This document shows positions 1 through 11,446 of a stretch of DNA of 45,772 nucleotides, piece by piece. Position numbers and translations under genes: made by a program. Position 1 is the first letter of the stretch; the number at the start of each line of letters is the position of its first letter. The notes beneath the pieces were generated by a model. That model was not told the origin of the DNA and did no database searches. It worked only from the letters and a program-made list of their open reading frames with translations. Source of the stretch: a virus; the IMG/VR virus record IMGVR_UViG_3300037086_000398, positions 68,362 through 114,133 of that record, one strand, 5' to 3'.

Positions 1-176
1 CCCATCTCATAAATCTCAAAACGAATTTTTGTGAGAAAAAGAAAAAGCTTGTGAATAGAGTGCCTTGCAAACATTGGAATCATGAATCTTTTGAGCTTAC
101 GAAAATTCAGAGAACATTAGTTGATCTTCATGATGCAATTGTGGAGTGGGGGATGACTCTCAAAAATGAAACTTGA
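1..176 (+). CDS. 5'-truncated member of the small Cys-rich paralog family; window edge cuts the N-terminus
   Basis: Frame 0 reads ...NFCEKKKKLVNRVPCKHWNHESFELTKIQRTLVDLHDAIVEWGMTLKNET*. It has the family C-terminal C-x2-W motif (PCKHW) and overlaps the next paralog's start by 11 nt. Confidence 0.4.
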   Translation, partial: HLINLKTNFCEKKKKLVNRVPCKHWNHESFELTKIQRTLVDLHDAIVEWGMTLKNET

Positions 177-444
177 AACTGACGAATTGGCCAAAAACAT
201 TCTGCTCAATAAAGTAAATTGTGAATATTGCCAGAATCATCTGAGATGTGAATTTGAAGACAATGAGTGGTGGTGTACCATGTCGAAAGAAACACCTATT
301 GAAATCTGTGAACAGTGGGAACCTCCAAATCTGGTTAAGATAACTTGGACTATTATTGGTAGCGACACTGAAAAGAACATTAAAACAATGACAAAAATAC
401 ATTCTCTAAGAAAAAAATTGGAAGCGTTCAATGCCAGAGGATAG
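166..444 (+). CDS. small Cys-rich zinc-ribbon-like protein, paralog family member 1
   Basis: 92 aa. N-terminal DELAKNILLNKVNCEYC and C-terminal ICEQWE motifs shared with the 10 downstream ORFs. Confidence 0.6.
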   Translation: MKLETDELAKNILLNKVNCEYCQNHLRCEFEDNEWWCTMSKETPIEICEQWEPPNLVKITWTIIGSDTEKNIKTMTKIHSLRKKLEAFNARG

Positions 445-733
445 GGTCGCCAAGAATCTTCTTCTTGGCAACACATGTCTCAATTGTAATTTCTATTACA
501 TAAGTGGAAAATGTTCGAGAAACTCTGCAGAATATACATGCGAAAAATGGAAACACATGACTCGATCTGCAACAATCTTAAAGGATGCGGCGGCATTTCT
601 AAAACAAGAAATACAACAAAAAGCTGAAATTAGGGCTAGAAAAGAAAAATACGCCCAAATTGAAAAAGACGAACATATGAAAAAGGCGGCTGAGCTTTTT
701 GGAATGGATATCACTCAATGGATGAAAATGTAG
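431..733 (+). CDS. small Cys-rich protein, paralog 2
   Basis: 100 aa with DRVAKNLLLGNTCLNC...TCEKWKH. Its start overlaps the upstream stop, suggesting translational coupling. Confidence 0.65.
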   Translation: MPEDRVAKNLLLGNTCLNCNFYYISGKCSRNSAEYTCEKWKHMTRSATILKDAAAFLKQEIQQKAEIRARKEKYAQIEKDEHMKKAAELFGMDITQWMKM

Positions 734-1029
734 CAGCTAAAAATCTTCTTCTTGGGCATGGTTGTGACAATTGTCATTTTCATAAGTTTATTCCTAATTC
801 AACCGGTGATTGGTGCGACAATATGGCAAAAACACCCGTTGAAAAAACCTGTGAAAAATGGAAACAAACTGATCTAGAATATAGAATAGTCGAAATGGCG
901 GCCAATAGTATGAAGAAAGAAATTGATGACTACGTCAAGAGTATGATTTTGAAATCGGCTGGAATAGAAGATTTGGATTCTCTGAAAAATATCTATGGAG
1001 TTGATTGGAAATGGAACCCGACAAAATAG
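718..1029 (+). CDS. small Cys-rich protein, paralog 3
   Basis: 103 aa with ENVAAKNLLLGHGCDNC...TCEKWKQ. Confidence 0.65.
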   Translation: MDENVAAKNLLLGHGCDNCHFHKFIPNSTGDWCDNMAKTPVEKTCEKWKQTDLEYRIVEMAANSMKKEIDDYVKSMILKSAGIEDLDSLKNIYGVDWKWNPTK

Positions 1030-1223
1030 CTAAAAATCTTCTTCAAAGGAATGTTTGTGCGGGATGTTTGCACTTTTGGGCAAATCATCTTTTCAATGAA
1101 GCCTCAAACAATTCTGCACATGAGTGGTGCGAATATCATGTCGTTAGACCAGAGGAAGATACATGTGAAAATTGGCAATGGTCAATCGTGGCCACTTTTC
1201 CAAGAGGGCGAGAACACGGATGA
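1005..1223 (+). CDS. small Cys-rich protein, paralog 4
   Basis: 72 aa with DKIAKNLLQRNVCAGC...TCENWQW. Shares an ATGA stop/start overlap with the next gene. Confidence 0.6.
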   Translation: MEMEPDKIAKNLLQRNVCAGCLHFWANHLFNEASNNSAHEWCEYHVVRPEEDTCENWQWSIVATFPRGREHG

Positions 1224-1513
1224 GCCTTGATCTCATAGCTAAAAGACTTCTGCTAGGCCACAACTGTAGAACATGCATGCATTCTTTTTATGAAATCCCA
1301 TCAAAAGATGGGATGGTGTATAAACAACATCTCTATAGAATGGATAGAAATCAAAGAGCTATAAAGGATGAAAGTCTTTTCTGCAACTATTCATTTTACA
1401 TGTCGGCTTCCTCTATTACTCCAGGATTACGGACACCCATAGGACAGATAGAAGCAGAAAGAATCCCTCCAGAAAGGACGTGTGTTCATTGGGAAGGAAT
1501 AGAAAAGACATAG
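1220..1513 (+). CDS. small Cys-rich protein, paralog 5
   Basis: Start chosen at M of MSLDLIAKRLLLGHNCRTC (ATG at 1220, overlapping the upstream TGA); ends ...IPPERTCVHWEG. The ORF track's alternative start is 1172. Confidence 0.6.
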   Translation: MSLDLIAKRLLLGHNCRTCMHSFYEIPSKDGMVYKQHLYRMDRNQRAIKDESLFCNYSFYMSASSITPGLRTPIGQIEAERIPPERTCVHWEGIEKT

Positions 1514-1707
1514 ATTTTGAAGCGAAGAGCCTTCTTCTGGGCCACCCCGCGGACGCTTGTTGCTATAATTGCATCCATTGTCTTCGATTTAAAATTGACA
1601 ACACGATCAAACATCTCTATGTTTGTGACGAAATGCAATCATTCAGCAATCACATTCGTCACCCTAAGAAATTTTTTTGTAAGCTATGGTCTCCTGATCA
1701 TGAGTAA
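1480..1707 (+). CDS. small Cys-rich protein, paralog 6
   Basis: 75 aa with DIDFEAKSLLLGHPADACCYNC...FCKLWSP. Overlaps the upstream gene by 34 nt in another frame. Confidence 0.5.
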   Translation: MCSLGRNRKDIDFEAKSLLLGHPADACCYNCIHCLRFKIDNTIKHLYVCDEMQSFSNHIRHPKKFFCKLWSPDHE

Positions 1708-1712
1708 TATAA

Positions 1713-2021
1713 ATGGAAATCAATAAAGCTGCGAAATATGCGCTGCTCGGTCGGTATTGTAGAAATTGCAGTCACGTATATCGCTTAGTGCCGCTCAAAA
1801 ATGGAAAAACTATAAGGCAAGACAAAACACATTGGGTATCTTTCGACAAAATAAAAGATGATGAGCTCTATTGTGCGCTCAATTCAGATATGTTGTCACC
1901 ACCTGGTCGAGCACCACGCCGGACGGCTCGAATGCATAAACAACAAATAACACCAGAGCAGATGTTGCCCAAGAGGATTCCACCAGAAAATATATGCAGA
2001 TTTTGGGATGGAGCAGAATAA
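1713..2021 (+). CDS. small Cys-rich protein, paralog 7
   Basis: 102 aa with INKAAKYALLGRYCRNC...DDELYC...IPPENICRFWDG. Confidence 0.6.
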   Translation: MEINKAAKYALLGRYCRNCSHVYRLVPLKNGKTIRQDKTHWVSFDKIKDDELYCALNSDMLSPPGRAPRRTARMHKQQITPEQMLPKRIPPENICRFWDGAE

Positions 2022-2036
2022 GCGCATATTTTATTC

Positions 2037-2324
2037 TTGATGGATACGGATAGAATTGCTAAAAGACTCCTCTTGGATCACGTTTGCAAAACGTGCAAGT
2101 TCTCATTCTATTTGATTCCTAGGCCAGATGGAAGAATCACCCATCGATATCTCTCTGGTGTTGCCACGTGGATGATCAATGAATATAGAAGAGATGAGCT
2201 CTACTGTGATCGAAGATGTGATAATTTCTTGGATCCTGTGCGTGAATCTAGATTCCATATGAAAGGTAGTATTCCGCCAAAAAAGATTCCAAAAGAGGAG
2301 ACTTGTGGCAAATGGGAACAATAA
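2037..2324 (+). CDS. small Cys-rich protein, paralog 8
   Basis: 95 aa with DRIAKRLLLDHVCKTC...RDELYC...IPKEETCGKWEQ. Confidence 0.6.
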   Translation: MMDTDRIAKRLLLDHVCKTCKFSFYLIPRPDGRITHRYLSGVATWMINEYRRDELYCDRRCDNFLDPVRESRFHMKGSIPPKKIPKEETCGKWEQ

Positions 2325-2500
2325 GCAAGGACGAGTTGGCTAAAGCTCTTCTAGAAGGACACACTTGTGAAACATGCACGAATGAGTGTGGATGGAATTG
2401 TTGTTTTGATTCTTCTAACGTTGGTCGACCATTACCACCAGAGCGTTGGTGTAATCATTGGGAAAAAGACATAGAATGGACAGGAAGGGTAGAGCACTAA
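2303..2500 (+). CDS. small Cys-rich protein, paralog 9
   Basis: 65 aa with DELAKALLEGHTCETC...WCNHWEK. TAATG overlap with the next gene. Confidence 0.55.
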   Translation: MWQMGTISKDELAKALLEGHTCETCTNECGWNCCFDSSNVGRPLPPERWCNHWEKDIEWTGRVEH

Positions 2501-2811
2501 TGGATGCTGACAGAATCGCTAAAAATCTTCTTGAAAACAAGCTCTGTACTAATTGCAAATACAACATGAAAAATGGCTGCTCTATCGATTGCAAAAATCT
2601 AGTGGCTACGACCATAGAAAACATTCCTCCATTTCCTTCAGAAGGAACTTGTGAAAGATGGGAAGAAAAGGTCCAAATAGTTGAAACCATAATGCAGGTC
2701 ATAAAAGCCTTTGGTGGTGGATTGGGTACATCTTCAGCTGGATTTGGAGAAATAACTAGAGTCGCCAAGATTTTAGAAGAGTATGATAAGTCTCTCAAAA
2801 AAAATGAGTGA
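2500..2811 (+). CDS. small Cys-rich protein, paralog 10
   Basis: Start at MDADRIAKNLLENKLCTNC (ATG 2500); ends ...FPSEGTCERWEE plus a Gly-rich tail. Confidence 0.6.
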   Translation: MDADRIAKNLLENKLCTNCKYNMKNGCSIDCKNLVATTIENIPPFPSEGTCERWEEKVQIVETIMQVIKAFGGGLGTSSAGFGEITRVAKILEEYDKSLKKNE

Positions 2812-3079
2812 GGATATTCAAGCTAAGCGCTTATTACTGGCGCAAAGTTGTTCAAATTGTTTTATCAGACAGTGTTTGCCACTGTCAGCCTCATGTCCAT
2901 TAGATAACAATAATGAGTTTTGGTGCAAGGAGTGGGCAGCAACCAACGTCTTTGGTGACGAGCTATATGCACCACGGATCACGACTATCAAACATCTTGT
3001 TGATGTCCTCAACATGATACATTCTTACAAAGGATTGAAACCTTTCACAAAAGAAACAATACTGAGACCACCTGGATAA
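2804..3079 (+). CDS. small Cys-rich protein, paralog 11
   Basis: Start at MSEDIQAKRLLLAQSCSNC (ATG 2804, overlapping the upstream stop); contains ...FWCKEWAA. Confidence 0.6.
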   Translation: MSEDIQAKRLLLAQSCSNCFIRQCLPLSASCPLDNNNEFWCKEWAATNVFGDELYAPRITTIKHLVDVLNMIHSYKGLKPFTKETILRPPG

Positions 3080-3130
3080 AATTAATGCTCTATCACGATG
3101 AGTGTTATTTCTGCAAGTTATCTAAGTAAG

Positions 3131-3162
3131 ATAATTACCTTGCATACTTATAGGTAATTATT
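3131..3162. repeat. perfect 10-bp inverted repeat (ATAATTACCT / AGGTAATTAT) with a 12-nt spacer, in the 324-nt intergenic region
   Basis: Read directly from the sequence. Candidate operator or RNA hairpin between the paralog array and the GC-rich gene. Confidence 0.4.
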
Positions 3163-3403
3163 GAGAATTTTACAGGGATCACTATCCAAAAGCCAAGGAC
3201 AGAACCCTGGGCTTTCTAGAAGCTTGCTGCTGGCAACAACAGTCAAATAATTAGATTATTAAGATGTTTTCACGGTGGCTGGTGAAGACAATTTTGAGAG
3301 ATTTTTATAGAGTTGTGCGAAAAGATTCTTCAAAAGGAGGTGCTTTATGAAGAGCGAGGGAGGGTTTTCCTAGTGATTAGTTAATGATCAAGGAGGACCC
3401 GTA

Positions 3404-4282
3404 ATGGATTCACAAGTTCTCGAGCGCAAGTTCGAGCAAATGGGAGCGAAGATCGAAGCATTCAAGGACCTCGCCACTCGCGAAAGAATTGAAAGAATGC
3501 GCCGAATCGCTCAGAACCCCCGTGCCTTTGTCCGCAATCGCGGAGCAGGCACTCCACCAAGACTTGACGTTGTGAAGAGAGGCAAGGACGAAGTTTTCGT
3601 CGTTGATACTTTCGATCAGAACATCGACGTTCAAGTTATCGACGTTCGCCCAGACGACAGACATCTTCTTCTCATGTTCAAGAGATTGGACGGAAAGAGA
3701 GAAGTTTCTAAGTTTTTGTGCGGACATGACGAAAGACACTGGTTCGTCGCAGCTGTTCCAGAATCTGCCGGTGCTAAGAATGTAAAAGACGCGATGGAGG
3801 CTCTCAAGCCCGATCTCGTCAAGATTTCTTTGAAAAGAGCTGGCGTAAAGACCAAGCACCACAACAAGAGACACAATAAGGGATTTGTGAGACAGGGAGA
3901 ATGGTTTTTCATTCCAGCCCCAGATCTCCAGATTGATGAAAGATTCATTCACAAGAATGAACCAATCTCTCGCGGAAGAGGTGCAAAGCCACATCGCTGC
4001 CAGGAGCTCTATAGAACTGGCGGAGAGCAGGTTTGGGTCAACCACCAGCACGCACCAAACGGATTCACCGAGACACAGTACAAGGCTTTCATTATAGCGC
4101 ATCCTGAAGAAGGACCACGCCGCGGGGCATGGACTGTAATGATGAGAGGAGCTACCGCTTTTGTGCGTGGTTGGGTGAGACACCCCGATCACAGCACCAT
4201 CCACCTCGATGGTTGGCACAGAGTGGAAATGAACCTCGAAAACAAGGCCAAGGCCATGGAATTTGTCGCATTTCTCGATTAA
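3404..4282 (+). CDS. hypothetical basic, His/Arg-rich protein of foreign (GC-rich) origin; moron-like
   Basis: 292-aa ORF with a strong SD (AAGGAGG) 8 nt upstream. GC is about 50% against a much more AT-rich background, with codons such as CGC, GAC, CTC, GCC. Followed by a canonical terminator. The antisense 300-aa ORF is a GC artefact. Confidence 0.75.
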   Translation: MDSQVLERKFEQMGAKIEAFKDLATRERIERMRRIAQNPRAFVRNRGAGTPPRLDVVKRGKDEVFVVDTFDQNIDVQVIDVRPDDRHLLLMFKRLDGKREVSKFLCGHDERHWFVAAVPESAGAKNVKDAMEALKPDLVKISLKRAGVKTKHHNKRHNKGFVRQGEWFFIPAPDLQIDERFIHKNEPISRGRGAKPHRCQELYRTGGEQVWVNHQHAPNGFTETQYKAFIIAHPEEGPRRGAWTVMMRGATAFVRGWVRHPDHSTIHLDGWHRVEMNLENKAKAMEFVAFLD

Positions 4283-4286
4283 GATC

Positions 4287-4310
4287 AAGCCCCCGAAAGG
4301 GGGCTTTTTC
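4287..4310 (+). terminator. rho-independent terminator (GCCCCC-GAAA-GGGGGC + TTTTT)
   Basis: Perfect GC stem, GAAA tetraloop and T-tract immediately after the 3404-4282 stop. Confidence 0.7.
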
Positions 4311-4353
4311 ATTTACGGGCCAAAAGTTATAAGATAGTTTAGAGGAGGCTCGT

Positions 4354-4650
4354 ATGCATGACGCAAAGAAAGAAAGCAAAAAGTTTATTAATCTGACATG
4401 GCAACAGATTGTTTACGCTGTTGTTGGCTTAATACTTATTGGAGCAGTTTCTTTTGTTGGATCTAGTCTTAATAGAGCTCTTGAGAAGGTTAACCAACAC
4501 GATATTGATCTTGTCAGAGTGAATTCAACTCTTGGTAATACCACGGCCACTGTCAGCATCTCTGTCAAAGATTTGGAAACTCTCAAAGGAGATGTTATCA
4601 AACTTCAACAAAGAGTAGATGATCTTCTTCCAAAGGGAGGTCCAAGATGA
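4354..4650 (+). CDS. small membrane protein: N-terminal TM helix plus predicted coiled coil
   Basis: 98 aa. Hydrophobic stretch IVYAVVGLILIGAVSFVG, then a heptad-like region. SD GAGGAGG upstream. Confidence 0.6.
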   Translation: MHDAKKESKKFINLTWQQIVYAVVGLILIGAVSFVGSSLNRALEKVNQHDIDLVRVNSTLGNTTATVSISVKDLETLKGDVIKLQQRVDDLLPKGGPR

Positions 4651-5042
4651 AAAAATTATTGATAGTATTGTTGGCTTTTCTCTTGTTCACACCATTACTG
4701 CAAGCAGAACAACAATTGGTACAATTTTTGAATGATTTCGAACTAAAGGCTGAATTTGATGGGTCCATTCTCACCATAAATAACACTGAAAAAGTTGCCG
4801 ATTTGAATGATGCTGCATATGAGGTGAGCTATATTCTTCGACTAATCGACACATATGTCCAGAGAAATCCTAAGTTTTCAATCAAAGAAATAAAAGAATT
4901 TCACTATATGCTTGGAAAGTTTAAGCTCGTATTGACAGCCAACCAATTGGATCAGATCTACAATGGTCCTCCGACGAGATCCGGCAACTTTAATTTAATC
5001 AATCAACTTCTCTTGAAACAATACAACAAGCAAATGAAGTAG
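4647..5042 (+). CDS. secreted protein with an SPase-I type signal peptide
   Basis: 131 aa. N-terminus MKKLLIVLLAFLLFTPLLQA|EQQ with no lipobox Cys. ATGA overlap with the upstream gene. Confidence 0.6.
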   Translation: MKKLLIVLLAFLLFTPLLQAEQQLVQFLNDFELKAEFDGSILTINNTEKVADLNDAAYEVSYILRLIDTYVQRNPKFSIKEIKEFHYMLGKFKLVLTANQLDQIYNGPPTRSGNFNLINQLLLKQYNKQMK

Positions 5043-5047
5043 CCAGA

Positions 5048-5071
5048 GGGGCATCTAAAAATGCCCCTTTT
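5048..5071 (+). terminator. rho-independent terminator (GGGGCAT-loop-ATGCCCC + TTTT)
   Basis: Hairpin and T-tract directly after the 5042 stop. Confidence 0.55.
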
Positions 5072-5130
5072 CATCCTACGGGCATAGAAAGATAAGATAA
5101 ATGTAGCATTCTCATATACAGGAAGTCACT

Positions 5131-8010
5131 ATGTCCATAGTAAGAAACTACTTTGATTTGATAACTGCTTTGAGTAGTCTAGACACATCAATCACGATAG
5201 CCAACGACATTGCCTTACAGGCACCGGTGACCGTAGGATACCAGTGTTCTATTCTGAGCTCCGCCGCTACCAAACCAAAAATTAGTTTAAATTATTCAGC
5301 GCCACAAATTATTAGCAATATAGGATACCAAGACTTTGGTCTAACAGGAATACTTTCAGCTACTTCAACAAATCTACAAATAGGAACCCTTTATTTCTTC
5401 AAAGTAAATGGAGTTGAATATAATCTTTCTGTTTCTTCTCAATTAACATATGGAGATCTTCATGTTGCTGTTGGAATGGCTATGACTAGGCCAATGCCAG
5501 TAGAATCAGCCGCTGCTTCGGAGGGAACTGAAGGTGGGGAGACGGTGGCTGAACCAGTTGTATTGGAAAGAAAACGTGTTTTTGGTGACGACTATTCTAT
5601 TGACATCGTATCTGGAGACTTAAGAGTTTCATCACTAAGATCCACTGCAGTTTTGGTTTCATCTGGTACCACTACTGAAATTAGTGGAAGTTCTGTCCCT
5701 TGTGTTGATTTATTGGAGGGGTTGGGCGCAATTGTAAAAACCAGTAGTCTTAAACCACATGTGCTTCCAAATCCGCCAACTCCTGGATACAACGATCTAG
5801 GTTTGATTGGTTTGACCGTATCAACATCAACCGGATTGATTCCTGGTACAATATATGTGCTCAGAGTTAATGCAACTGAATTTGATATTGCGGTTGTTTC
5901 TCAAATGACTTATGGTGATTTGATTACTGCTCTGAGCAAGGCAGCCTCTATAGATAGAAAAACTACATTTGCTGCCAATTTTTCTGCTGACATTGTTTTT
6001 GGAGACTTGCGAATTTGGTCACCTACTGGCATTGGAGTTCTTGTTTCTCTGGCTGAAATATCAGAAGATGAACCATCTTATGTTGATTTGCTAAGGGGTT
6101 TGGGAGTCATTGTTGAGTCAGGTAGTCTTCCACTACCGGTGGACCCAACAACTCCAATTCCAGTAAATCCTGCTGCCTTTACAATTGCAGCATCTTCTGT
6201 TAGATTAATGAATCTCGAATTTTCATATCCAGGAGGATCTGCAATTAGATTCGATGGCACGATTGGTGGGCTGGTTGCTCCATCACTTCTTGATATTATT
6301 ACTTCAGGATCTGCTCGAGGATTTGAACTCATCAATACCAGAAATGGAACTTTTGAAAGTTGTGTTTCTCATAATTGTGGTTTGGGATTTGATTTAGTTG
6401 GTTCATCTTCAACCGTTGGAAATATCTTAGGATATCAAAATTTTGGCCTTACTGGCATTCTATCTACCACTCCAACACATTTAGTAACACAGAGAGCTTA
6501 TTTCTTCAAAGTTAACGGAACAGAATATCAACTCATATTATCTCAATCATTCGTAATAGCAGATACATTCGCGACTTTGACAAGCATGATAAACAACAAC
6601 TCGCTTTCAACAGATGGTAAGTTTGCTTTTGATGAAGACTTTTCTATAGATATTGTTTCTGGAGATCTTCAAGTTTCTTCATTGAAGGGAACTACTGTTT
6701 CTATTTCTTCTGGAACTACGACATCTATAGTTGAAAGCACGATGGTTTGTCTTGATCTATTAGTTAGTTTACATGTATCATTACCTCTGCCAGCGACCGT
6801 TGCACCAAGCGATGATGGTGGCAGAAAAGATCGCACCCATCACAATAATTTCTTGGGTTGCATAGCCTATAATGATGCACCAAACGGTATAGGAATTAAG
6901 TATACTAACGCCAATAACAACAAATTTGAAGAAAGCAAAGTATACAACAATGTATATGGAATTGTTCAGGAAGCCTTAAGCTATTCAAATAGCTTCAGAG
7001 GTGAAATCTATGGAAACTCAAATTATGGATTGATGAATAGCGACAGAACTTCTGGGCTTCATGTTTTTGATGCTTCTTCTTGTTGGTGGGGAGATCCTCT
7101 GGGACCAAGTGGGGCTGGACAGGGAGATGGTGATAAGACGAGTCTTGGAGTCATTTTTGATAATTGGCGAAGAAATGGAACAGAACCAACTCTTTCATAT
7201 CCTGGAACAAGAGAATGGATATGGGCAATGTTGGGTTATCCTGTTGTAAAAGTAGAATTGACTGATGACCAAGTCACAAACTGTATTGATATGGCCATCA
7301 AGAAGTTTATGTATTACATGACTCCAGATCCATACTATTACTATTTTGACATCGCCGCCGGACAACACGAAGTGAAGCTGCCTGTTGACATTACTAAAGA
7401 CAAAGTCATTCAAGTGGTGTATCAGCCAACTTCCGATATTTTTGCGCAATTAGCTTCTTCTGGAGAATCATTCTTTTTGACTTACTATATGCAATATACA
7501 GGTGGAGCCTTTTTAGCAGACTTCTATATCGCCATGGCCTATAAGGAAACTTTCGAAAGAACATTGGGTATTCAACCTTCATATGAATACCTAACTCATA
7601 ATGAAATGCCAGATGATCCTGATCTTATAATGTTGGATGTTAATGGGCAACCAATTCTAGATCCAAATAATCCTAATATGTTTATGTTGAGAGCTCCACA
7701 GATGCGACAATATATCCGACTTTATCCTGCTCCAACTTCTTATTCGATAAGAATGGCAATCAAAGTCAGTAGAACTCCTTCAGAAGAAGAGATCGATGAA
7801 GAAGGTTTGGTTTGGATTAGACGATATGCTTTGGCCTGGTCAAAGGAAATGCTTGGAAGAATCAGAGGAAAGTTCGCCTCTTTGCCTGGTCCTACTGGAG
7901 AGATTACGCTCAATGCTGATTCTCTCATAACTGAAGCCGCAAGTGAGAGAGAAGAGTTGTTAAAAGAGTTGATCAGTTTGGGAGAACCCCTTACTTTCAC
8001 AACGGGATAG
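5131..8010 (+). CDS. large virion structural protein (fibre/neck/baseplate-like) with a roughly 130-190-aa domain repeated three times
   Basis: 959 aa. Three internal repeats carry YQDFGLTGILSxTST...FFKVNGxEY...TYGDL and DFSIDIVSGDL...SSGTTT...DLL motifs. Lies in the structural region upstream of the sheath. C-terminal part YPVVKVELTDDQV... not identified. Confidence 0.65.
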   Translation: MSIVRNYFDLITALSSLDTSITIANDIALQAPVTVGYQCSILSSAATKPKISLNYSAPQIISNIGYQDFGLTGILSATSTNLQIGTLYFFKVNGVEYNLSVSSQLTYGDLHVAVGMAMTRPMPVESAAASEGTEGGETVAEPVVLERKRVFGDDYSIDIVSGDLRVSSLRSTAVLVSSGTTTEISGSSVPCVDLLEGLGAIVKTSSLKPHVLPNPPTPGYNDLGLIGLTVSTSTGLIPGTIYVLRVNATEFDIAVVSQMTYGDLITALSKAASIDRKTTFAANFSADIVFGDLRIWSPTGIGVLVSLAEISEDEPSYVDLLRGLGVIVESGSLPLPVDPTTPIPVNPAAFTIAASSVRLMNLEFSYPGGSAIRFDGTIGGLVAPSLLDIITSGSARGFELINTRNGTFESCVSHNCGLGFDLVGSSSTVGNILGYQNFGLTGILSTTPTHLVTQRAYFFKVNGTEYQLILSQSFVIADTFATLTSMINNNSLSTDGKFAFDEDFSIDIVSGDLQVSSLKGTTVSISSGTTTSIVESTMVCLDLLVSLHVSLPLPATVAPSDDGGRKDRTHHNNFLGCIAYNDAPNGIGIKYTNANNNKFEESKVYNNVYGIVQEALSYSNSFRGEIYGNSNYGLMNSDRTSGLHVFDASSCWWGDPLGPSGAGQGDGDKTSLGVIFDNWRRNGTEPTLSYPGTREWIWAMLGYPVVKVELTDDQVTNCIDMAIKKFMYYMTPDPYYYYFDIAAGQHEVKLPVDITKDKVIQVVYQPTSDIFAQLASSGESFFLTYYMQYTGGAFLADFYIAMAYKETFERTLGIQPSYEYLTHNEMPDDPDLIMLDVNGQPILDPNNPNMFMLRAPQMRQYIRLYPAPTSYSIRMAIKVSRTPSEEEIDEEGLVWIRRYALAWSKEMLGRIRGKFASLPGPTGEITLNADSLITEAASEREELLKELISLGEPLTFTTG

Positions 8011-8301
8011 TTGATGAGGTTGCTCAATTATTTGAAACTGTTGCCAAAATATGATGTGCAAATTTGGTTAATGAAAGAGAAGGGTCCTCGGCTTGATTTC
8101 TGGCAATATTATGGTGGTGAGCGAAAAAAATGGAGAATTACAAGGATCACTACCAACATCTTTGACGAGTTTCAAATAAGCTGTGTGGAAAATGGAAAGA
8201 AGACAACGGCTCAATCATATTCTCCAACTGATTGGCCAAATTTTTATGTAGAAGAATATTCTGGATTGAAGCTGATCTTTGAATATGAGTGGACAAAATG
8301 A
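8011..8301 (+). CDS. hypothetical protein
   Basis: 96-aa ORF tightly packed after the structural gene. Confidence 0.45.
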   Translation: MMRLLNYLKLLPKYDVQIWLMKEKGPRLDFWQYYGGERKKWRITRITTNIFDEFQISCVENGKKTTAQSYSPTDWPNFYVEEYSGLKLIFEYEWTK

Positions 8302-8627
8302 AGTTTAGCAAACCAAAAATGGGTGAAACAAGATTCCTAGTATTCATGGATCACGATAAAGAGCAATATTGGATTTATGAGGTGATTGTCGTGAAGGCCG
8401 GCAGGACATGGTTTCGCGGAAAGCCAGTTCGAAAGATTATTGACAACAGCCATGATAGCCTTGCAGTAAGAGAAGTGGGTGAATATCCAAGTTTTTGTTT
8501 CTTGGAAACAGAAGAAGATTCTAGAAGATTATTATTGGTGGCCGCTCTGGATCCTAGAAGCACACATTTGTTTTTTAAAGAGAATCCATATCTTTGGGAA
8601 CTTGGTGTAAAGGCAAATTGGCTATGA
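8289..8627 (+). CDS. hypothetical protein
   Basis: 112-aa ORF overlapping its neighbours in an operon-like arrangement. Confidence 0.45.
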   Translation: MDKMKFSKPKMGETRFLVFMDHDKEQYWIYEVIVVKAGRTWFRGKPVRKIIDNSHDSLAVREVGEYPSFCFLETEEDSRRLLLVAALDPRSTHLFFKENPYLWELGVKANWL

Positions 8628-8926
8628 GATTCGACGAAATAAAACCTGGAATGTTTCTTTATAGAGAGACTGTTGAGGGTCAATTTTGGAGCAAGATTCT
8701 AAGCAAAACTGAGGATGCAATTACATATGAATCCTATGTGAATTGGATCATTAAGTTCGAAATTGAGCATAGAATATATAAGACTGTTAGTAATAAAAAA
8801 TGGAATGATTCGACTGAACCTTTTAAGAGTTATGTCTCTGTAAAGAATAACAACTTTGAAGAAAGTAATTTTCGCACCATGATTGTTGATTTGTTTAAAA
8901 AGCTGATAAAGGAAACGAGAGGATGA
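8594..8926 (+). CDS. hypothetical protein
   Basis: 110-aa ORF. Confidence 0.45.
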   Translation: MGTWCKGKLAMRFDEIKPGMFLYRETVEGQFWSKILSKTEDAITYESYVNWIIKFEIEHRIYKTVSNKKWNDSTEPFKSYVSVKNNNFEESNFRTMIVDLFKKLIKETRG

Positions 8927-9102
8927 CATTCGAAAAAGTATTAAATGAAAAGGTCAAGGAGAAGAAATTCAGAATTGATCCAACATACTACAACATGTCT
9001 TTTAAGAAAGACGATGAATCGGTCAAAGACTATAAAAAAGCCATAAGTAAAAAGGGTGCTTATTATAGTGTTTGGCATCATCAATATATAACAAAGTTGT
9101 AG
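8923..9102 (+). CDS. hypothetical small protein (59 aa, below the ORF-track cutoff)
   Basis: ATGA overlap with the upstream stop; translated by hand as MTFEKVLNEKVKEKKFRIDPTYYNMSFKKDDESVKDYKKAISKKGAYYSVWHHQYITKL. Confidence 0.35.
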   Translation: MTFEKVLNEKVKEKKFRIDPTYYNMSFKKDDESVKDYKKAISKKGAYYSVWHHQYITKL

Positions 9103-9120
9103 GACAGTGGGGAGCACAAT

Positions 9121-9321
9121 ATGAGAGCAAGTCTAAAATGGGAAAGATATATTGAGGAAACTGGAGAACAGGCAGAAAAGGCCATTTTTGAAGACATGAA
9201 GGAGGCCTCTGAAGACGATAAGTGTGAATGTGGTGAGAAAATTGAAAAGAGTTATGTGAGGGGTACTCTGAAATGCAAGGGGTGTAGTAAATACTACAAA
9301 GATAAAGCTTTTAAGAAATGA
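9121..9321 (+). CDS. hypothetical small protein with CxC...CxxC
   Basis: 66-aa ORF; RBS GGGGAG upstream. Confidence 0.45.
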   Translation: MRASLKWERYIEETGEQAEKAIFEDMKEASEDDKCECGEKIEKSYVRGTLKCKGCSKYYKDKAFKK

Positions 9322-9593
9322 GATGGTACAAATTCACTCGAGAGATTCAGAAGAAATTTTCTAGACTTCAGAGAGTGCCAGAAATTCAAAGGGGATGGTA
9401 TGTCGAGAAGCTACTTCCAGGAGAGATAGTTGTGATAGAAACTGATCATGTTTGGTCCTATTTCATACCTCCTTGGGATGCTCCTCCTGATCCTGCGAAT
9501 TCGGAGCAAATTTCGGTGAAAGAACTTCCTGGAAGACTTCTTCCAGCATTCATAAAAGCCGTATTTGAAATTGATTTAAATGAGGAACCATAA
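9318..9593 (+). CDS. hypothetical protein
   Basis: 91 aa; ATGA overlap with the upstream gene. Confidence 0.45.
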   Translation: MRWYKFTREIQKKFSRLQRVPEIQRGWYVEKLLPGEIVVIETDHVWSYFIPPWDAPPDPANSEQISVKELPGRLLPAFIKAVFEIDLNEEP

Positions 9594-9898
9594 TGGAACT
9601 AAAAAAACTAGCTGAAAACTATCAGCCAATGCACAAGAAGCACTACACTCAAATTGGTGGGGCTCTCAAGAAATATGGAATAGTGGATTATCAAGTGAAA
9701 GCAGAGGAGCTTGATCCAGACAAGAAAGAATGGATTACTAAAATCATCATAGAGGATGAACTTGATAGTGATCAAATTGCCAAATTGCTTACAGCATTTG
9801 AGAGATTGGATATAAGCAAAAAGAACATTGATGTGAGGCAGTATCCAAACAAATCCGTCACTGTTTTTGAAATCACTGGTCAGTATAACTTAATGTAG
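9593..9898 (+). CDS. hypothetical protein
   Basis: 101 aa; TAATG overlap with the upstream gene. Confidence 0.5.
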   Translation: MELKKLAENYQPMHKKHYTQIGGALKKYGIVDYQVKAEELDPDKKEWITKIIIEDELDSDQIAKLLTAFERLDISKKNIDVRQYPNKSVTVFEITGQYNLM

Positions 9899-10822: not shown

Positions 10823-11446
10823 ATGGGCTCAAAGAATCAGGTCAAACGATTGCGGGTCTATGACCAGCAGACTGTCGATTATGATCTCATCAACTCTCTT
10901 GACGAGGAGCTGCTAGAAATAGCCTCTCCTCCGCTCAAGATCTATGCGTTTAACCTCGCTAAGACTGTTCCAAAGGATCAAACATCTCCACTAGACGATC
11001 TTTATGCAGAGGCCGACATTCTTGATGAGAGCAAGATTCAAGCTATGTATAACCATGGTGGTGGTGGATTTTCTGCAAAAGACTTTACAATCGTTCGACC
11101 TGGTGAGATTTTCGACAATCCTATCGTAGTTCCTGGATACTATCAAGAGCCGACCTGGACTCAGGAACTTACAAGAATGGGTGTTGAAAATGTTGAAGAA
11201 GAACTTGCTATCACTTTCAACTATCAAACAATGAGAAGCCTTTTGGGACAGAAAGAAATTAAGATTGGAGACATTGTCCAAACTTTCAGAGGAAAAATCT
11301 ATCGAGTGATGGATGCATATGTGGCAGACGAAATTTGGGGATGGAAGTACCTACATTTCCATGTTGTTGCTAGAAAACCAGAAGGATTAGATCAGATTCG
11401 CCTACCCGAGGGCTCCCAGCCTCCCACTATGGGTTATTCTATCTAA
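10823..11446 (+). CDS. hypothetical protein (structural-module position)
   Basis: 207-aa ORF. Confidence 0.55.
   Translation: MGSKNQVKRLRVYDQQTVDYDLINSLDEELLEIASPPLKIYAFNLAKTVPKDQTSPLDDLYAEADILDESKIQAMYNHGGGGFSAKDFTIVRPGEIFDNPIVVPGYYQEPTWTQELTRMGVENVEEELAITFNYQTMRSLLGQKEIKIGDIVQTFRGKIYRVMDAYVADEIWGWKYLHFHVVARKPEGLDQIRLPEGSQPPTMGYSI

Follow-up and report, generated by a model that had tools for sequence, protein, structure and literature searches.

A large unnamed protein family linked to tRNA arrays and RNA-repair genes, carried by a huge phage in a compact cassette with a leader open reading frame

The stretch of DNA analyzed here, 45,772 nucleotides long (positions 68,362 to 114,133 of the IMG/VR record IMGVR_UViG_3300037086_000398, hereafter the window), derives from a very large T4-like myophage and contains, at 3404-4282 on the + strand, an open reading frame (ORF) of 292 amino acids labeled gene X. 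Its product belongs to a large unnamed family that appears to be a regular constituent of long same-strand arrays of tRNA genes and of RNA-repair operons, both in bacteria and in huge phages. The explanation that we prefer, at a probability of roughly 55%, is that X would act on tRNA, that its expression would be switched by a leader within a self-contained cassette, and that this cassette would have been transferred or homogenized between two phages. A preliminary description, made from the sequence alone, had taken gene X for a recently acquired foreign moron, of a kind that often encodes superinfection-exclusion, anti-defense, or toxin-like functions; its observations were confirmed, and its interpretation was partly right.

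Association with tRNA Arrays and RNA-Repair Genes

A 90%-clustered sequence collection contained 5,398 homologues of X, and clustering at 50% identity gave at least 2,460 clusters, 623 of them at E <= 1e-30; the similarity of X to the family extends over the full length of the protein. None of the 120 homologues listed, all with E <= 1e-68, possessed a Pfam domain. At least 584 copies were retrieved from GTDB species representatives, mostly Planctomycetota with others in Acidobacteriota and elsewhere, and at least 89 from IMG/VR, many of them on contigs of 200-530 kb. Among the phage loci of the close family, tRNA genes lie within about 4 kb of the X homologue in 26 of 37 and number five or more in 15; 160 of these 165 tRNAs are on the strand of X, some abutting the gene directly. 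Bacterial loci show the same arrangement, with tRNAs in 27 of 80 (17 of which carry 5-33) and 364 of 368 tRNAs on the strand of X. A distant phage subgroup with a different N-terminal domain, comprising about 19 of the 40 distant loci scanned and serving as a rough internal control, has tRNAs in only 2 of its loci.

The 134 immediate bacterial neighbors of X include, as raw counts, HNH proteins (8), RtcB (2), Tpt1/KptA (2), an RNA ligase (PF09414) with an OB domain (2), Metallophos proteins (2), a PNKP ligase (1), and a HEPN RNase (1), and the RtcB count rises to five within 6 kb. Three operon orders recur: X followed by Tpt1 (three Planctomycetota loci); RNA ligase, X, and HNH (two Acidobacteriota loci); and vWA..RtcB, X, HNH, and AAA (three Acidobacteriota loci). 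The HNH family of these operons is also found near X in eight phage loci. The bacterial loci display neither a universal neighbor nor a recurring antitoxin-like partner. Because four RNA-repair enzyme families recur and the gene is embedded in arrays in bacteria and phages alike, the association of X with RNA repair and tRNA arrays is strong.

Long tRNA arrays (L-arrays), which are horizontally spread, and a cyanobacterial translational-stress regulon have been described with HNH, RtcB, AAA, slipin, and vWA-like partners (PMC8421152, PMC10272220). The neighborhood of X matches this published set, since the family resides in arrays of up to 33 same-strand tRNAs and has HNH, RtcB, AAA ATPase, vWA, and band-7/slipin partners; X itself is not named in the two papers. 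Unlike the L-arrays, the family had no homologue on PLSDB plasmids in a tblastn search, which likewise retrieved nothing from the INPHARED phages, and the window carries no tRNA array. A second point of comparison is provided by the RNA-repair toolkits of jumbo phages, which comprise RtcB, Rnl1/Rnl2, Pnkp, KptA, 2H, and cREC (PMC7824862, PMC9503650). The X family resembles these toolkits in its occurrence in large phages near tRNA genes, in a plausible role against tRNA-cleaving host defenses, and in the operons that its bacterial members share with the same enzymes, and differs from the enzymes themselves in lacking sequence or fold similarity to any of them.

Several features of these loci, which are identified by L-numbers as labels of the loci carrying X homologues, are recorded here in their own right. 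In L172, a phage tRNA-Ala(TGC) gene (469-572) directly upstream of the X homologue is interrupted at the canonical 37/38 intron position by 29 inserted nucleotides, fewer than a group I intron would need. The precursor folds into a cloverleaf whose anticodon arm is extended (z = -4.0), and insertion-free copies of this tRNA-Ala occur in L004 (7893-7966) and L091 (3022-3095). Four other short-intron calls gave poor folds on inspection and are probably false positives. Phage arrays also contain tRNA-Leu(UAA) genes with anticodon-loop insertions of 206-242 nt, which have the size and position of a classical group I intron (L105 115-415, L107 1916-2210, L109 500-805, L110 598-912, and L135 2035-2359), as well as tmRNA genes beside X homologues (L094/L095 8412-8764, L102 4941-5299, L126, L142, L158, and L038) and, in several arrays, CUA-anticodon tRNAs of the amber-suppressor type. 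A gene pair recurs near X-family genes in six phage loci (L098, L130, L132, L133, L142, and L144), one gene encoding a vWA-like protein of 520 aa and the other a protein with an ARPP-1 domain; ARPP has been described from ADP-ribose-centered conflict systems (PMC9503650).

Architecture of the Cassette and Its Leader

Only one relative of the window phage was found, the 732-kb contig L002, which encodes an X homologue with 88% identity at the same junction. The elements of the cassette and the segment around it, including an upstream ORF (uORF) and two Shine-Dalgarno (SD) sequences, are as follows; the gene entry gives the ratio of nonsynonymous to synonymous substitution rates (dN/dS) and the AlphaFold2 (AF2) predicted local distance difference test score (pLDDT).

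3086-3129, + strand: gene remnant of 14 codons, ...ECYFCKLSK and stop, aligning to the end of L002 ORF 9503-9721
3094-4313, + strand: cassette (leader, gene X, and terminator), a single blastn block against L002 9686-10910
3131-3140 and 3152-3161, strand not assigned: perfect 10-bp inverted repeat ATAATTACCT/AGGTAATTAT with an 11-nt loop
3189-3215, + strand: leader hairpin AAAGCCAAGG-N7-CCTGGGCTTT, with arms 90% complementary
3326-3354, + strand: hairpin 1, whose loop contains the uORF SD and whose 3' arm contains the uORF AUG
3334-3340, + strand: uORF SD, AAGGAGG, 6 nt before the uORF ATG
3347-3373, + strand: leader ORF (uORF) of 8 codons, MKSEGGFS and stop
3362-3400, + strand: hairpin 2, in which GGGUUUUCCU (3362-3371) pairs with AGGAGGACCC (3391-3400), with an inner 6-bp stem
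3390-3396, + strand: main SD of gene X, AAGGAGG, 7 nt before the ATG
3404-4282, + strand: gene X, 292 aa, member of the large unnamed family; AF2 pLDDT 88; dN/dS about 0.17 against L002
4287-4309, + strand: intrinsic terminator AAGCCCCC-GAAA-GGGGGCTT, followed by T's

An 8-codon uORF or a 10-bp AT-rich palindrome arising by chance is not improbable, and conservation decides between them: the uORF is kept and the palindrome is not. On these comparative grounds, the uORF with its own SD that had been singled out earlier is real and conserved, as all four leaders available (window, L002, L088, and L173) contain an 8-codon uORF preceded by its own SD. The L002 peptide is the same, MKSEGGFS, and its coding sequence differs at only two places, a synonymous substitution and a change of the stop codon from TAG to TAA. 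L088, whose protein is 69% identical to X and whose gene context is different, encodes MKKEGGFL and stop, while L173, with a protein 57% identical, encodes MKKKFCSL and stop. The window, L002, and L088 share a common layout of SD, 8-codon ORF, a gap of about 30 nt, and main SD with ATG, the distance from uORF stop to main ATG being 30 nt in the window.

The pairing of the leader is likewise retained. Hairpin 1 appears in both the minimum free energy and centroid folds of the window and of L002, in which the block is 100% identical, and the last uORF codons pair with the main SD region in four of four leaders, each folded singly; L088 and L173 maintain this pairing despite their different sequences. 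Folding of the leader alignment gave 14 pairs, 6 of them with a compensatory change, and z-scores for hairpin 2 across the four leaders were -3.3, -3.1, -1.3, and -2.6. Since a ribosome translating the uORF must open hairpin 2, gene X and its leader are predicted to be, at the least, translationally coupled. The array-embedded homologues L004 and L172 have no uORF, the gene following directly after a tRNA, and neither does the L089 homologue, which lies beside NAD-salvage genes. A DNA pattern search of viral and metagenome contigs for further uORF leaders gave no matches.

The resistance genes cat, cmlA, and erm possess translation-attenuation leaders, those of cat and cmlA being 9 codons long. 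Like these, the leader of X consists of a short ORF (8 codons) with its own strong SD, and, as in cat and erm, the 5' arm of the hairpin overlaps the end of the leader ORF while the 3' arm holds the SD of the gene. By analogy, ribosome stalling in the leader could induce X, an idea made attractive by the link of the family to translational stress. The differences from cat and erm are that X is not a resistance gene; that the leader stop lies inside the 5' arm, so that plain translational coupling without stalling would also work; and that the peptide sequence of the leader is not kept in L173.

The remaining parts of the cassette fared unevenly on comparison with L002. The perfect inverted repeat reported in the preliminary description is present, ending at 3161, one nucleotide before the end given there, and it is lost as a repeat in L002; its function is therefore doubtful, and the candidate role of the palindrome as an operator was rejected. 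The L088 cassette is also preceded by the loop sequence of this repeat, TGCATACTTAT. The 324-nt spacer at 3080-3403 has the length reported, although it is not entirely noncoding in origin, as 3086-3129 is left over from the 3' end of a 72-aa gene, dead here and intact in L002. The leader hairpin at 3189-3215 falls within a near-identical block and is retained in L002 with a bulge. The leader blocks 3189-3215 and 3270-3300, with this hairpin and the stretch TTTTCACGGTGGCTGGTGAAGAC, are nearly identical in L002; the two blocks had no Rfam match, and an Rfam scan of 2900-4500 returned only sub-threshold chance matches. The terminator, with a stem of 8 pairs (4287-4306), 6 of them G-C, a GAAA loop, and a following T run, was found where an intrinsic terminator had been described and ranks top among the terminator-like sites in the first 12 kb, the total of which is no higher than in shuffled sequence. 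A hairpin with a T run also lies 3' of the X homologues in L002, L088, and L171. Leader, gene, and terminator thus constitute the self-contained cassette that had been proposed.

History of the Cassette

Cassette and flanks have distinct histories. Between window and L002, nucleotide identity is 85.8% in the cassette (3094-4313) and 68-77% in the flanks, with no alignment possible over 4314-5047. The proportion of synonymous differences (pS) is 0.34 for gene X and 0.59-0.86 in all 21 flanking orthologue pairs, where synonymous divergence is saturated, from which the cassette has either a more recent common ancestor than the two genomes or an unusual synonymous constraint. Transfer or homogenization within the phage gene pool is favored by four observations: the high-identity block has sharp edges; it includes part of the dead gene remnant (3094-3129); the same leader, gene, and terminator recur in L088 inside an unrelated gene context; and in a neighbor-joining tree the sister group of the window clade consists of array-embedded huge-phage copies, not of bacterial ones. 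Homologues with the highest identity to X (57-88%) lie on phage-like contigs, bacterial ones reaching 42-50%, and the source of the cassette is probably the phage gene pool. L002, the only relative found, carries the cassette at the same junction; a megablast of the first 12 kb against phages gave no match, and no further relatives were found through the 959-aa protein encoded downstream.

The composition of gene X is as deviant as had been reported. Its GC content is 0.498 (0.594, 0.382, and 0.519 at codon positions 1, 2, and 3) in a window of 0.388, and the 500-bp bins of 3501-4500 (0.47-0.48) are the richest of the window. Third-position GC (GC3) ranges from 0.27 to 0.46 in the other window ORFs of at least 150 aa, and against 38 other + strand ORFs (mean 0.348, standard deviation 0.043), none of which is as high, gene X (0.521 in this comparison) has z = 4.0. 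After codon 3, gene X contains no TTA, CTA, or TCA codons, which leaves a 300-aa antisense ORF (3410-4312, - strand) open in exact codon alignment with it, in L002 as well; this ORF was rejected as a gene, having no supporting evidence and being open as a by-product of the codon usage of gene X. Gene X itself is real and under selection, with a rate of nonsynonymous substitution (dN) of 0.076 and of synonymous substitution (dS) of 0.46 against L002.

Vertical inheritance is the alternative that survives best, and we regard it as unlikely. It holds that the high GC3 and low synonymous divergence of gene X arose through strong selection on codon choice, for instance toward efficient translation when tRNAs are under stress, and on the structure of the leader RNA. 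Several observations speak for it: GC3 of X exceeds that of its neighbors in 31 of 36 phage loci and is the highest in 15; high GC3 is maintained between cassettes whose proteins share only 69% identity; the junction is the same in both phages; and the leader RNA structure would be conserved in any case. Against it stands the comparison with a flanking gene (10823-11443), which has the same protein conservation (86% identity, dN 0.080) and a pS of 0.67 rather than 0.34. The drop in dS is fourfold or more, large for codon selection alone, and the high-identity block has sharp edges and takes in the remnant at 3094-3129, which should drift freely; the occurrence of the L088 cassette elsewhere in context is a further difficulty.

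A more doubtful possibility is that X is a selfish homing-type DNA endonuclease that spreads itself and adjacent tRNA arrays among co-infecting phages and bacteria. A cassette far younger than its flanks, and yet at the same site in two phages, would be expected of such an element, as would its presence in the unrelated L088 context, and members of the family have HNH genes as neighbors and lie within tRNA arrays of a kind that spreads horizontally (PMC8421152). A precedent is T4 SegB, a homing endonuclease whose gene lies within the tRNA gene cluster of T4 (as cited in PMC8421152); X shares with it the position of a protein gene within a phage tRNA cluster and the youth of the cassette relative to its flanks. 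Unlike SegB, X has no GIY-YIG or HNH homology, is under strong purifying selection, and is widespread on bacterial chromosomes.

The C-terminal β-hairpin and helix of X, with D262-H263...N277..E279, recalls a His-Me finger, a resemblance that then failed a profile test: hhalign against the neighboring HNH family returned a probability of 0.1%, and no profile similarity to HNH or His-Me finger families and no match to the ββα-metal fold was found. The His-Me/HNH identity was accordingly rejected.

Similarly doubtful is the reading that follows from the preliminary description, in which X is a recent foreign moron from a GC-rich donor, with a toxin, superinfection-exclusion, or tRNA-unrelated anti-defense function. 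The deviant composition, the terminator and SD of its own, the youth of the cassette relative to its flanks, and the many bacterial homologues from GC-rich Planctomycetota (median locus GC of the bacterial homologues, 0.58) agree with it, as does a general likeness to lambdoid morons, which are likewise lone accessory genes that carry a terminator, deviate in composition, and have a history of their own. X departs from those morons in that its leader has no sigma-70-like match, its junction is shared by the sole relative, and it apparently originates from the phage gene pool. Of the claim of recent acquisition, the part concerning a history distinct from the flanks stands, while that of an unameliorated donor is not supported, as the nearest relatives are huge-phage genes rather than bacterial ones and GC3 is elevated family-wide; because X exceeds its neighbors in most phage loci, high GC3 is not simply a donor signature. 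A toxin or exclusion function gained no support: PADLOC returned no match, X forms a single well-conserved gene family without an antitoxin-like partner that recurs, and its context is that of tRNA and RNA repair, which would be counter-defense only in a broad sense.

Conserved Residues and Proposed Function

The AF2 model of X is confident (pLDDT 88.3, predicted template modeling score 0.81), and a Foldseek search with it against the PDB found nothing, as did sequence and profile searches of the PDB with X. Pfam and PADLOC gave no match for X and 35 family members, PADLOC returned 0 families for X and two homologues, and NCBIfam and PHROGs yielded only sub-threshold matches (E 0.095 and 0.023), the PHROGs one to a family of unknown function. 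A BFVD structure search retrieved a single match, an unnamed 424-aa viral protein. Longer family members with N-terminal extensions carry no Pfam domain there and hence offer no informative fusion, and a search of phages with L135, a distant relative that has the N-terminal domain of X, gave no match.

Across 35 close members, 45 alignment columns are invariant, all of them present in the window protein, with the motifs GHDERHWF, LKP, RQGEWFF, KPH, RGG, VRH.DH.T, WH.V.N.E, and a C-terminal FLD; a conserved K/R-rich segment (residues about 147-163) precedes RQGEWFF. A superfamily alignment (A4) adds distant phage relatives to these close members; phrog_29643 and phrog_7247 are matched by some of the added sequences. 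The relatives in these two families, from Gordonia and Microbacterium phages, are 23-30% identical to X and share G.DE, LKP, RQGEWFF.P, PH, VRG.V.H..H, N.E, and the C-terminal Asp; they differ in having another N-terminal domain and in lying mostly outside tRNA arrays. Residues invariant across the superfamily are D109, A130, R163-Q-G-E166, F169, H263, and the last residue, D292, with F114, L134, W167, F168, H197, G256, and N277 nearly so. This pattern looks like an active site, to which no catalytic fold could be matched. The invariance of the final Asp throughout the superfamily (...FLD, WID, WVD, or VD, then stop) is an observation of its own and suggests that the free C-terminus of X is functionally important. 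A 2H phosphoesterase was considered as a candidate and rejected, as X has a single HxT motif (H263-x-T265) of which T265 is not superfamily-invariant, and no fold match was obtained.

The genomic context points to tRNA as the most likely target of X, and on the same basis our best guess is a metal-dependent nuclease or phosphoesterase that would process or heal tRNA ends, working with ligases and Tpt1. Such an activity would keep translation going under tRNA damage, for example by host anticodon nucleases. In the clade of the window, gene X would have left the tRNA array to become part of a compact cassette in which an SD, the 8-codon leader ORF, and a hairpin occluding the main SD precede the gene and a terminator follows it; this cassette would have reached, or been homogenized between, two related phages after their divergence. 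A ribosome translating the leader would melt hairpin 2 and thereby allow translation of X. To the leader structure observed here, a stalling logic can be added by analogy with the cat and erm attenuators: expression of X would be induced when a ribosome stalls in the leader, and a shortage of intact tRNA for the Lys, Glu, or Gly codons of the leader could be the cause of stalling.

A bolder version of this mechanism, which we consider quite unlikely as it stands, is that X is a tRNA-cutting or -healing enzyme of a new fold that feeds RtcB, or an RNA ligase with Tpt1, with the leader acting as a sensor of tRNA shortage. In bacteria and huge phages, X might for instance provide the endonuclease, or the end-processing step, that a protein-only pathway of tRNA splicing or repair still lacks. 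The L172 tRNA-Ala with its 29-nt insertion is a single case bearing on this reading. If true, the reading would provide a natural substrate for bacterial Tpt1/KptA and would explain the presence of protein genes inside long tRNA arrays.

Improbable, and the weakest of the alternatives, is a noncatalytic tRNA-binding factor (a chaperone, a decoy, or a protector against anticodon nucleases), with which the lack of a recognized catalytic fold, the conserved basic segment, and the embedding of the gene in tRNA arrays would agree, whereas the superfamily-invariant polar residues (D109, R163, Q164, E166, H263, and D292) and the nearly invariant H197 and N277 are more active-site-like and the operons join X with RNA-end-processing enzymes.

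Several results weigh against the explanation preferred here, that of a tRNA-acting protein in a leader-switched and exchanged cassette. ARAGORN finds 0 tRNA genes in the 45.8-kb window, the X loci of L002 and L088 have none either, and no RNA-repair gene was seen in the window. Among the bacterial loci, 53 of 80 are without a nearby tRNA and most are without an RNA-repair neighbor; the neighbor counts are raw, uncorrected by any formal background model, and some of the locus and neighbor counts are inflated by relatedness among the genomes. Conservation of the leader is based on four sequences, two of which are close. No sigma-70-like promoter was found on the + strand of 3064-3404, in a scan blind to phage-specific promoters. 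Finally, the low dS could partly reflect codon selection, the GC3 excess being family-wide.

Flanking Genes

The window of this T4-like myophage has genes for a baseplate protein, a gp19 tail tube, a sheath, and a gp13-like protein; also encoded are an intein-containing ribonucleotide reductase, RecA-like and SbcCD-like proteins, a tubulin, and a peptide deformylase. A protein identical to X is recorded on a 114-kb contig. In both the window and L002, gene X follows an array of small Cys-rich paralogues and precedes a gp13-like gene. This array comprises about ten tandem ORFs of 65-117 aa (window 166-3079, + strand; L002 about 4600-9720) that have in common an N-terminal motif AKNLLLG..C..C and a C-terminal C..W motif. 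The array is kept in the 732-kb relative, its synonymous sites being saturated, and two members tested gave no Pfam match.

Directly 3' of the cassette, window 4314-5047 and L002 10911-11392 have no homology; the former holds ORFs of 98 and 131 aa and the latter a single 143-aa ORF, and both the 131-aa and the 143-aa ORFs have signal-peptide-like N-termini. A gene at 5131-8010 (+ strand) encodes a 959-aa protein with three internal repeats of the form GYQ.FGLTGILS...YFFKVNG.EY, a β-helix segment, and a T4 gp13-like C-terminal part; its L002 orthologue has 1,014 aa and 55% identity.

Significance

The interest of this locus lies less in the moron than in a large unnamed family that is tied to tRNA arrays and RNA repair and is here packaged with a conserved leader-ORF switch. 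Long tRNA arrays and RNA-repair operons are known, and their logic is only partly understood; we know of no accepted substrate for bacterial Tpt1/KptA. The X family, which is large, strongly conserved, unnamed, and without a recognizable fold, is a concrete candidate for the missing step, with a range from Planctomycetota to 700-kb phages in which it is embedded in arrays and shares operons with RtcB, RNA ligase, and Tpt1. For annotation, the family merits a name and a profile model. For phage biology, the cassette would represent a tRNA-array gene turned into a mobile, self-regulated unit, the leader of which may couple expression to the state of translation.

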